From: a virus | Lineage: Monodnaviria > Loebvirae > Hofneiviricota > Faserviricetes > Tubulavirales > Inoviridae | Direction: 5' to 3' (one strand) | DNA: 8,398 nucleotides | IMG/VR virus record: IMGVR_UViG_2603880148_000001 | In this document: positions 5,440 to 6,825 of the stretch, in pieces | Layout of the letters: each line of letters opens with the position of its first letter | Position numbering within the stretch: the stretch's first letter is position 1 | Notes under the pieces: generated by a model | What the model was told of the DNA's origin: nothing | The model's input: only the letters and a program-made list of their open reading frames with translations | The model's database searches: none | Translations under genes and position numbers: made by a program

Positions 5440-6825
5440 TTGATTCACTTTATTATTCCGCTTCTGTTTTTGTTCTTTTCCTCGTTTTCTTTCGCTGAAG
5501 AGAAAGAAAATCCGGATGCACTTGTTCAGTGTGCAGGCCATTCATCCTGCAGGACAGATTATTCGGACGCGGGGACGTCGATTAAATTAGCCAGGGCGGC
5601 CGGTCATCTTTTCTGTGGTTCGGGCAGTTATGACGCATGTTCCGGAATAATTCATTATTGTGGTGTGCCACTTTCCACGCCTGTTAATGCACCTTCGACT
5701 GTCGGGTCTTTTGTCCGTGCCCGGTGGTCAGCATATAAAGTCTGGGATTCAGACAAGCAAAAGTGGACAGCCTGCACCCTTGCTTTTCAGGGTGGTGAGG
5801 GGGATTTGACACCTGAATATAATAAGCCGGTTACCGAAGAAAATTGTCTTTCCCGTCCGGTAATTAAGGACTTTTCATATTCTCTTGGTGATGTTGTCTG
5901 GGTTGATACGGGTAACGGGCAGGAATCTCAGTCCCTGGAAATTAATGGCTGTCGTTATTTGATTGATTTTAACGAGTGTGATGACGACGGGAATTGTATC
6001 GCTCAAAGTATGCGTTCTGTTGGCGTGGCTGCCGCCAATAAAAATCCTGACGGCAATACAGGGAGTGGCTCTGGTTGTGACGACGACAATTGCGATAATA
6101 CGACAGGCTCTGGCGGTTCATCCGGCAGTGGTGGTTCAGGTTCTGGCTCCGGTGGTTCATCCGGTAGCGGTGGCTCCGGCTCGGGTTCCGGCGGCTCATC
6201 CGGCAGTGGTGGTTCAGGTTCTGGCTCCGGTGGTTCATCCGGTAGCGGTGGCTCCGGCTCGGGTTCCGGCGGCTCATCCGGCAGTGGTGGTTCAGGTTCT
6301 GGCTCCGGTGGTTCATCCGGTAGCGGTAGTTCAGGTTCAGGCTCCGGTGGCTCATCCGGCGATGACAATGGCTGGTTTGATGGTATTTTGGGCTGGTTAA
6401 AAACAATATGGGGTTCAGTGAATGATTTAAATAATACTTTTTCTGTTTCTCAGGATGATATTACCAGTGCGGTTAGTTCTTATGATTCACAGTTAAATGA
6501 ATTAATTCATTCTGTAACGCCTGAACAGGATGATATGTCTTCATTTGCTGACAGGCTTTTCAGTCTTCTTCCTGATGAGTGGCTTTATATTAATTTTGAT
6601 AAATTACTTTTAACTGGTGAACTGCGTCGTTCTGGTGCTCAGCCAGTTCAGATTGAATTTCCATTGCCGGGGATAAATGGGCTGTATTTTACAATTGACA
6701 CATCTGATTTTGCTTCAGCTTATGATGACATTATCAGACCTTTACTGGAGTATGCTCTTTATGCATTAACGACTTTACGTTGTTACTTTATTGTTCGTCG
6801 TGTTCTTTTTGTTGACAGGGGGTAA
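5440..6825 (+). CDS. Minor coat / adsorption protein (pIII-like)
   Basis: SD AGGAGGG (5427-5433) 6 nt before TTG start 5440. N-terminal signal peptide MIHFIIPLLFLFFSSFSFA, Cys-rich N-terminal domains, long Gly/Ser linker, hydrophobic C-terminal segment. Sits after the major coat gene as gIII does in inoviruses. Confidence 0.75.
   Translation: MIHFIIPLLFLFFSSFSFAEEKENPDALVQCAGHSSCRTDYSDAGTSIKLARAAGHLFCGSGSYDACSGIIHYCGVPLSTPVNAPSTVGSFVRARWSAYKVWDSDKQKWTACTLAFQGGEGDLTPEYNKPVTEENCLSRPVIKDFSYSLGDVVWVDTGNGQESQSLEINGCRYLIDFNECDDDGNCIAQSMRSVGVAAANKNPDGNTGSGSGCDDDNCDNTTGSGGSSGSGGSGSGSGGSSGSGGSGSGSGGSSGSGGSGSGSGGSSGSGGSGSGSGGSSGSGGSGSGSGGSSGSGSSGSGSGGSSGDDNGWFDGILGWLKTIWGSVNDLNNTFSVSQDDITSAVSSYDSQLNELIHSVTPEQDDMSSFADRLFSLLPDEWLYINFDKLLLTGELRRSGAQPVQIEFPLPGINGLYFTIDTSDFASAYDDIIRPLLEYALYALTTLRCYFIVRRVLFVDRG
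6112..6360 (+). repeat. In-frame 78-bp tandem repeat, about 3.2 copies, encoding a (GGSSGSGGSGSGS)n linker
   Basis: Copies at 6112-6189, 6190-6267, 6268-6345 and partial 6346-6360; the first two copies are identical and the third differs near its 3' end. The repeat generates spurious alternate-frame ORFs on both strands. Confidence 0.9.

Follow-up and report, generated by a model that had tools for sequence, protein, structure and literature searches.

A codon-scrambled tandem repeat encodes the Gly/Ser linker of a probable gene III attachment protein in an Escherichia coli inovirus prophage

Introduction

A stretch of 8,398 nucleotides (nt) assigned to the Inoviridae (IMG/VR record IMGVR_UViG_2603880148_000001; hereafter the window, by which we mean the whole stretch) contains a near-perfect tandem repeat within an open reading frame (ORF) of 461 amino acids (aa) that begins with TTG and was recognized as gene III-like from the ORF list and the gene order (5440..6825, + strand). 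An earlier note on this DNA read the repeat as the Gly/Ser linker of a pIII-like adsorption protein and as a site prone to change. This introduces the questions of what the array encodes, whether its copy number is real, and whether the array is altered among related prophages. We found that the array encodes 85 residues of glycine and serine, placed directly between a TolA-binding-like domain and a C-terminal domain. It is highly probable that the protein is an IKe-type gene III attachment protein of an inovirus prophage and that the array is its Gly/Ser tether. RefSeq holds the protein at the same coordinates of a 99.8% identical copy under the accession WP_251292117.1, where it is named only 'hypothetical protein'.

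Structure of the repeat array

We analyzed the window with Tandem Repeats Finder, which described the same DNA in two ways: as a 78-nt period with 3.2 copies and 95% matches (6112-6360, score 442), and as a 39-nt period with 6.5 copies and 79% matches (6106-6360). The in-frame 78-bp tandem repeat claimed in the earlier note was therefore borne out by the program and by translation, with two refinements. The array is built from a 39-nt unit (13 aa), two synonymous versions of which (a and b) form the 78-nt dimer, and it starts at 6106, not 6112. No comparable repeat was detected by Tandem Repeats Finder elsewhere in the window. The units run in the order a b a b a t plus a partial unit, where t is a terminal variant; unit 2 is identical to unit 4, and unit 3 to unit 5. 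The longest exact repeat is 132 nt (at 6118 and 6196), whereas 200 shuffles of the gene gave no exact repeat longer than 14 nt. A tandem array far beyond chance is thus confirmed.

The array (6106..6360, + strand) lies in frame 0 of the ORF, and its product is GSGGSSGSGGSGS repeated six times followed by GSGGSSG (aa 223-307). The resulting linker of 85 residues consists of 45 Gly and 40 Ser, with no other residue. In the AlphaFold2 model it has a predicted local distance difference test (pLDDT) score of 24-30 and no secondary structure. Versions a and b differ at 8-9 of their 39 nt, and all of these differences are synonymous in the gene III frame only; therefore, the selected frame is that of the gene III peptide. 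The G+C content of the array is 66%, compared with 42.5% in the rest of the gene and 48% in the window, and the array draws on all six Ser codons. Such codon scrambling removes short-period repeats, and this may be the reason why the linker is steadier than a sister linker with a 15-nt unit (described below). The first two 78-nt copies differ at 1 nt, while their 39-nt halves differ at the 8-9 synonymous sites mentioned above. On this pattern the recent expansion proposed in the earlier note is plausible; however, gene conversion would look alike.

Identity of the gene product

The gene III-like ORF lies between a major-coat-like gene and the pVI-like and pI/Zot genes, and a secretin gene comes next in the near-identical locus L001. 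The part of the product that precedes the linker, domain 2 (5830..6105, + strand; aa ~131-198 with a Cys-rich tail to aa 222), provided several indications of its identity. BLASTP aligned this domain with a variant found in relatives (E = 4e-8), which has four cysteines in the same pattern and passes the Pfam threshold for PF05357 (Phage_Coat_A). A profile that includes the domain 2 variants matched the TolA-binding domains of IKe (4EO1, E = 4e-16), fd, f1 and IF1 in the PDB; the matched entries were 4eo1, 1fgp, 2g3p and 1tol, with E = 4e-16 to 2e-12 for 4eo1 and 1fgp. When the window protein was modelled with AlphaFold2, domain 2 alone was predicted with confidence (pLDDT 68-77, against a full-length mean of 38.8). 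When this model was compared with the PDB by Foldseek, the top six matches were all TolA-binding domains of the gene III protein (g3p) of IF1, IKe and fd, with template modelling (TM) scores of 0.73-0.74 for those of IF1 and IKe. Because domain 2 is of the g3p N1 type and the domain order is that of IKe, we consider the protein to be an attachment protein of the IKe type. The earlier assignment as a pIII-like adsorption protein is therefore upheld by the gene order, by the g3p N1 fold of domain 2 and by the IKe-like architecture.

The C-terminal domain (6361..6825, + strand) follows the array without interruption. The position of the linker between a receptor-binding and an anchor domain, as previously claimed, accordingly holds as an observation, in that the array joins the TolA-binding-like domain directly to the C-terminal domain. 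The C-terminal domain contains a conserved GW(F/L)DGILGWLKTIW..SVNDLN segment, helices, a beta-hairpin and a long hydrophobic C-terminal helix, after which come basic residues. The hydrophobic stretch was seen by eye in the translation, and the long helix was predicted at low confidence. The order of helices, beta-hairpin and long helix in these low-confidence models resembles that of the C domain of f1 pIII as described in PMC10175506. Given its position, this order and the basic tail, the domain is presumed to be the anchor to the virion and the membrane.

Several observations weigh against this identification. The window protein itself passed no Pfam or PHROG threshold. A profile of the C domain matched no g3p chain in the PDB, and no sequence or fold similarity to the C domain of pIII of the Ff phages (f1, fd and M13) was found. 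Both AlphaFold2 models are of low confidence outside domain 2, and the low pLDDT of the linker is weak evidence of disorder. The location of the window protein at the virion tip and its role in adsorption and entry are predictions. The Foldseek search with the C-domain model (pLDDT 52) returned only flagellin-like helical noise and was uninformative. A sequence search of the PDB with the full protein found only artificial Gly/Ser linkers of engineered fusions, and these were discarded as low-complexity noise.

Behaviour of the array in assemblies

We examined how the array appears in draft genomes and metagenomes. Four protein clusters with the head region comprise about 27 distinct sequences from about 55 contigs that are labelled partial, and these sequences break off early in the linker, at residues 222-245. 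The complete draft versions (409, 412 and 419 aa) carry 2.5 units of the 13-aa type (hereafter type 1), or 1.5 in the 412-aa recombinant, and 2.5 units is the shortest path from a to t through the repeat graph. In metagenome contigs the array measured 255, 249, 177 (twice), 171 and 99 nt, and one more contig ends inside it; the short arrays are below the full arrays by exact multiples of 78 nt. The warning that this repeat is a hazard for short-read assembly was strongly confirmed by these partial and shortened versions. Assembler collapse and true slippage between 78-nt repeats predict the same products, so that the short arrays cannot be scored either way from assemblies. However, variation within the lineage of the window occurs in short-read data only, which argues that many of the short arrays are artefacts. 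The 255-nt structure of the window, by contrast, is the same in three independent sequences: the complete genome CM128582, an IMG/VR contig (L017) and a metagenome contig (L032). Therefore, the copy number in the window is not an assembly artefact.

Copy number and mosaicism among relatives

The protein family to which the window protein belongs is a mosaic. Domain 1 exists as many alleles, which are 70-100% identical among relatives, and domain 2 as variants A (that of the window), B and C. The linkers are of type 1 (the 13-aa unit of the window), type 2 ((GGGSS/GGGNS)n) or type 3 (Ser-rich), and the C domain has three interchangeable variants. Both main combinations of domain 2 and linker occur with all three C-domain variants, and all head-by-tail combinations exist in the family.

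We carried out the comparison of copy number across relatives that the earlier note had proposed, using as the reliable set of type-1 linkers attached to domain 2A 18 gene copies from the window, 14 complete genomes and 2 IMG/VR contigs. All 18 have 6.5 units, and other counts were found in a recombinant lineage. Array length is 255 nt in 7 copies and 249 nt in 11, the latter having a common 6-nt deletion; ten of the 249-nt copies, in complete genomes, are annotated as one protein, WP_050488172.1. The 18 copies represent 5 distinct nucleotide arrays and 3 unit orders (ababat, baabaa and bababt), which are at least two unit-sized events apart. Between lineages the adjacent domain 2A is 99.3% identical, whereas the positional identity of the array is 83-91%. 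This indicates that the array has been reshuffled faster than unique DNA mutates, with its length unchanged. Where one genome carries tandem prophages, their arrays are identical.

The genes of the recombinant lineage combine domain 2B and a few type-2 units with type-1 units. The crossover between the two types lies at a 6-nt GGTGGT microhomology inside the linker. The type-1 arrays of this lineage are ababt, ababbt and ababbbbbbbt (4.5, 5.5 and 10.5 units), with total linkers of 84, 97 and 162 aa, so that whole 39-nt units can be gained. Type-2 linkers differ in length in every complete genome examined (81, 96, 116 and 130 aa), span about 20 to 116 aa elsewhere and range overall from about 20 to 130 aa; one of them (L019) is exactly 85 aa, and several others are 76-97 aa.

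These results support, at the level of the family, the view that the array is prone to copy-number change and recombination. The part of the earlier claim that stands is drawn from relatives, namely the gains of units in the recombinant lineage, the different unit orders, the crossover and the variable (GGGSS)n linkers. It does not extend to copy number in the window's own lineage, which is invariant among 18 copies that amount to 5 distinct arrays, and this counts against instability of the window array, a property that we infer from relatives. We tentatively propose, as a possibility that falls short of being likely, that the linker DNA together with a conserved hinge and a conserved post-linker segment serves as a recombination joint, at which heads and anchors are exchanged between co-resident or tandem inoviruses; in this proposal the 15-nt linker is hypervariable, and the window linker holds at about 85 residues, possibly under selection.

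Alternative explanations

If the 6.5-unit structure were an artefact of assembly, then the true copy number would be different. Short-read assemblies do handle the array badly, with proteins that stop inside it and others with 2.5 or 4.5 units. However, the same array is found with the same unit order in CM128582 (one synonymous difference), in the IMG/VR contig and in the metagenome contig, and 6.5 units occur in three further lineages from complete genomes; thus, an artefact seems highly improbable. We also considered whether the repeat belongs to an ORF in another frame or on the other strand, to a collagen-like repeat or to a signal at the DNA level. Three stop-free ORFs of 121-145 aa overlap the array (5963-6400 on the + strand, and 5969-6406 and 6003-6368 on the - strand), but they begin and end just outside it, as any stop-free repeat would give, and are shadows, not genes. 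Moreover, the unit differences are synonymous in no frame but that of gene III, and the flanking conserved domains are continuous in this frame in all relatives, so that we give this idea almost no credence. A collagen-like repeat was rejected, because Gly occupies positions 1, 3, 4, 7, 9, 10 and 12 of the unit and not every third position, and Pro is absent.

The remaining alternatives concern selection. The array might be an adaptive contingency locus, in which selection, and not neutral change, underlies a frequent variation in length that adjusts infectivity or host range. Linker lengths from about 20 to 162 residues in the family would be consistent with such a role, as would the finding that gene III is the most variable gene in the E. 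coli inovirus prophage UPphi, for which host range has been raised as a possibility (PMC7307601). However, 13-codon units make on/off switching impossible, every variant seen stays in frame, and the window's own lineage remains at 6.5 units in all reliable copies. The passage of PMC7307601 on Bruno and Bradbury (1997) reports no fitness effect of length changes in IKe, and specificity for the receptor would be expected to lie in the folded domains, and it is these that are exchanged here as modules. Therefore, a contingency locus appears unlikely; a phase-variation switch was rejected, because units of 39 nt equal 13 codons and cannot shift the frame. Stabilising selection near 85 residues, with the repeats as a by-product of the origin of the linker and the array effectively stable, would account for the three unit orders that all total 6.5 units despite at least two unit-sized events, for the identical arrays of tandem copies in one genome, and for the type-2 linkers of 85 aa and of 76-97 aa. 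Against it, there are only 5 distinct arrays and 3 orders, whose equal length could be due to chance; linkers of 116, 130, 162 and about 27 aa occur in intact genes, some of them in complete genomes; and the 99.3% identity of the flanking module between lineages implies that little time has elapsed. We regard this explanation as doubtful, although selection for a length near 85 aa is weakly suggested, the independent arrays being few.

Proposed mechanism

Under the preferred interpretation, that of an IKe-type attachment protein with a Gly/Ser tether, the linker would keep the two receptor-binding heads on a long, loose string, by analogy with Ff and IKe. In those phages disordered strings connect the heads with the virion tip, and where the linkers are long, more than one of the five copies of the protein may be able to engage the receptor. 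The heads of the window protein would first seek out and bind the receptor and subsequently periplasmic TolA, with the C domain remaining on the particle. The 85-residue tether would have a contour length of roughly 30 nm; it is longer than the IKe linker (about 50 aa) and than both Ff linkers combined (about 58 aa), and it presumably plays the same role.

As for the origin of the array, a 39-nt unit may first have been duplicated and then have diverged synonymously into a and b. The 78-nt dimer may later have been amplified, or been kept homogeneous by conversion, which would give exact repeats of up to 132 nt. Slippage in replication or unequal recombination would then lead to in-frame gain, loss and reshuffling of whole units. 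The array could also act as a crossover site between co-resident phages, with the result that tether length is changed and head and tail modules are swapped while the frame remains intact.

Other parts of the gene and its neighbourhood

Upstream of domain 2, the ORF begins with a putative signal peptide (MIHFIIPLLFLFFSSFSFA; 5440..5496, + strand), read by eye in the translation as a hydrophobic N-terminus ending in S-F-A. It is followed by domain 1 (aa 20-~117) and a conserved hinge, GGEGDLTPEYNKP (5497..5829, + strand). Domain 1 is presumed to bind the primary receptor, as its place in the protein corresponds to that of the N-pilus-binding domain in IKe g3p. It gave no Pfam, PHROG or PDB match, and a phmmer search of the N-terminal half against the PDB returned nothing significant. 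The end of domain 2, at 6061-6105 (aa 208-222), consists of a short GSGSG and a tail rich in Cys and Asp, CDDDNCDNTT. The other domain-2 variants lack this tail, which adds two cysteines immediately before the linker.

A ribosome-binding site, AGGAGGG, was read from the sequence 6 nt 5' of the TTG start (5427..5433, + strand). It is preceded by a terminator-like GC hairpin (5395..5420, + strand; a 7-pair stem with 6 GC pairs, then TTTTTT), which separates gene III from the major coat protein (pVIII-like) gene directly upstream (5119..5379, + strand). The latter was recognized by a weak match to phrog_1646 and by a position that is the same as in Ff and IKe. On the downstream side lie the pVI-like minor coat gene (6828..7184, + strand; phrog_1944, E = 4e-10; position as in IKe) and the pI/Zot assembly ATPase gene (7187..8398, + strand; PF05707 Zot, E = 5e-9; phrog_1675, morphogenesis protein I of M13, E = 5e-49).

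Prophage, integration site and distribution

The window opens with hipB and hipA, followed by a dif-like site and then by the genome of a filamentous phage. The phage genes are a small divergent gene, a GPA-type replication endonuclease gene (PF05840), a gene for a weakly G5P-like protein, small ORFs, the coat-like gene, the gene III-like ORF, the pVI-like gene and the pI/Zot gene. The near-identical copy in CM128582 continues with the secretin gene and lies between hipA and a pseudogene of the fimbrial usher ydeT. The dif-like site, GTGCGCATAA-TGTGACACGCG-TTATGTT, is at 1667-1694, 78 nt 3' of the hipA stop; it has the sequences of both the XerC and the XerD arms, and its spacer is 11 nt instead of 6. 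The canonical 28-nt dif of E. coli was not found in the window, even when as many as 3 mismatches were allowed. The dif-like site is probably the junction between prophage and chromosome left by XerCD-mediated integration at dif. Between the small divergent gene (2012-2200, - strand; phrog_2503) and the replication gene there is a 16-nt direct repeat, GCAAAATTGCACTTGT, in 2.2 copies (2243-2277), which looks like an operator or iteron region.

A different arrangement was observed in three close phage relatives (L004 15938-18909, L005 15939-18910 and L006 15939-18910), in which an IS110-family transposase gene lies directly upstream of rep. These relatives lack the small divergent gene, and their insertion sites are not at dif but within murP or between hcxB and ybiB. 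The arrangement has the appearance of a different module for integration, carried by the same backbone.

Two head-to-tail prophage copies are present beside hipA in strains AST205 and 100416 (L002 5084-18976; L003 5573-18860); the gene III arrays of the two copies are identical. More than two copies were sought in AST205, and only two are present. In CM129038 (strain 700481), CM128606 (E100341) and CP035860 (TD225-C4), two prophages of the window family occupy different loci of one genome, and the two gene III types of strain 700481 differ (WP_050488172.1 and the 385-aa P0010). Prophages that reside together in this way would be able to swap heads and tails, as is seen in the family. Two other copies show signs of decay: in E300010 (L014 1000-2415) gene III is annotated from an internal start only and 1 nt is missing from the locus upstream of the array, and in AST240 (L010 2786-3016) Zot/pI is reduced to a truncated pseudogene. 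Strain JNE25-005 contains a different inovirus, whose Rep is related, as two tandem copies with gene III products of 442 and 422 aa; this inovirus encodes in its accessory region a secreted protein of 121 aa annotated as a TolA C-terminal domain (L037 6400-6765, - strand). This TolA-like protein might be a decoy for TolA-binding attachment proteins and thereby lead to superinfection exclusion.

We also investigated how widely the phage is distributed. A megablast search matched gene III in 19 of 5,426 complete E. coli genomes, roughly 25-30 of these genomes carry the phage backbone, and the carriers are mostly human stool or clinical isolates from Africa and Asia. In the deposited phage collection, blastn and tblastn searches with gene III gave no match. 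The pI and Rep proteins are at most 35% identical to those of any deposited phage, the best matches being Vibrio fs2 and VFJ; the window pI is less than 60% identical to that of every phage record (31% for Ff), and Rep, a GPA/RstA-type endonuclease, reaches at most 33%. A scan of the GTDB representative genomes with the C-domain profile found no relative, and IMG/VR contained ten relatives of the C domain. Membership in UPphi or Lineavirus was ruled out by the protein identities, which fall short of the core criterion of about 70% in PMC7307601, and by the rarity of the phage.

Comparison with known systems

These results give a name, the attachment protein of a rare E. coli inovirus known mostly from isolates of human diarrhoeal studies and from clinical isolates, to what RefSeq lists as a hypothetical protein. 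They also imply that short-read surveys systematically truncate or shorten gene III, which would bias both prophage detection and variant analysis.

A close counterpart is IKe g3p (Lineavirus; gene III of NC_002014). The two proteins share the order of a signal peptide (putative in the window protein), an N-terminal receptor domain (presumed in the window protein), a TolA-binding or TolA-binding-like domain, one Gly-rich linker and a C domain, and the fold of domain 2 matches 4EO1, the TolA-binding domain of IKe. In both phages the linker DNA is made of short tandem repeats, the genes are in the order VIII-III-VI-I, and a stem-loop, annotated in IKe, is located 5' of gene III. However, domain 1 and the C domain are without detectable sequence similarity to those of IKe, the backbone is distant, and IKe is a non-integrating phage. 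Its linker of about 50 aa includes Thr, Asp and Glu and has periods of 15 and 27 nt, whereas the window linker has 85 aa of Gly and Ser and periods of 39 and 78 nt.

In f1 pIII, flexible Gly-rich linkers join the domains N1 (67 residues), N2 (131) and C (150) (PMC10175506). The Ff phages share with the window protein a TolA-binding N1 fold and the use of Gly-rich linkers, of the GGGS type in Ff, that tether the heads to the C domain (PMC10175506). They differ in that the TolA-binding domain comes first and the pilus-binding domain second, in that there are two linkers with a total of about 58 residues, and in that the C domain is not detectably similar.

The variability of the family has a precedent in the UPphi prophages of Enterobacterales, 229 of which were found to contain 95 gene III variants, distinguished mostly by how many GGGES repeats they have (Shapiro and Putonti 2020, PMC7307601). 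In the part of that paper that cites Bruno and Bradbury (1997), this region is said to diversify rapidly in IKe without a measured fitness effect. UPphi is an inovirus prophage of E. coli that is integrated at dif, as the window phage probably is, and often occurs in tandem, with a gene III that varies mainly by the number of linker repeats between the N- and C-terminal domains. However, it is a close relative of IKe and I2-2, unlike the window phage; its unit is 5 aa, compared with 13 aa (39 nt) here; and the unit count of the window linker is constant in reliable assemblies. A further comparison is with the sister (GGGSS/GGGNS)n linker (L006, L039-L041, P0006-P0029). It occupies the same position in the same family, is interchangeable with the window linker, and is fused to it in one recombinant lineage. 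By contrast, it has a 15-nt unit, changes length from one complete genome to the next, and is always found on the other domain-2 variant.

Variable Gly-rich repeats in gene III have thus already been described, in IKe and UPphi, and in this respect the window case is ordinary for inoviruses. It adds a case to the known pattern, in which inovirus attachment proteins evolve by repeat-length change and module swapping, and leaves that picture unchanged. What stands out in comparison with these systems is the long, codon-scrambled 13-aa unit, the apparent constancy of linker length beside a hypervariable sister linker, and the crossover inside the linker.

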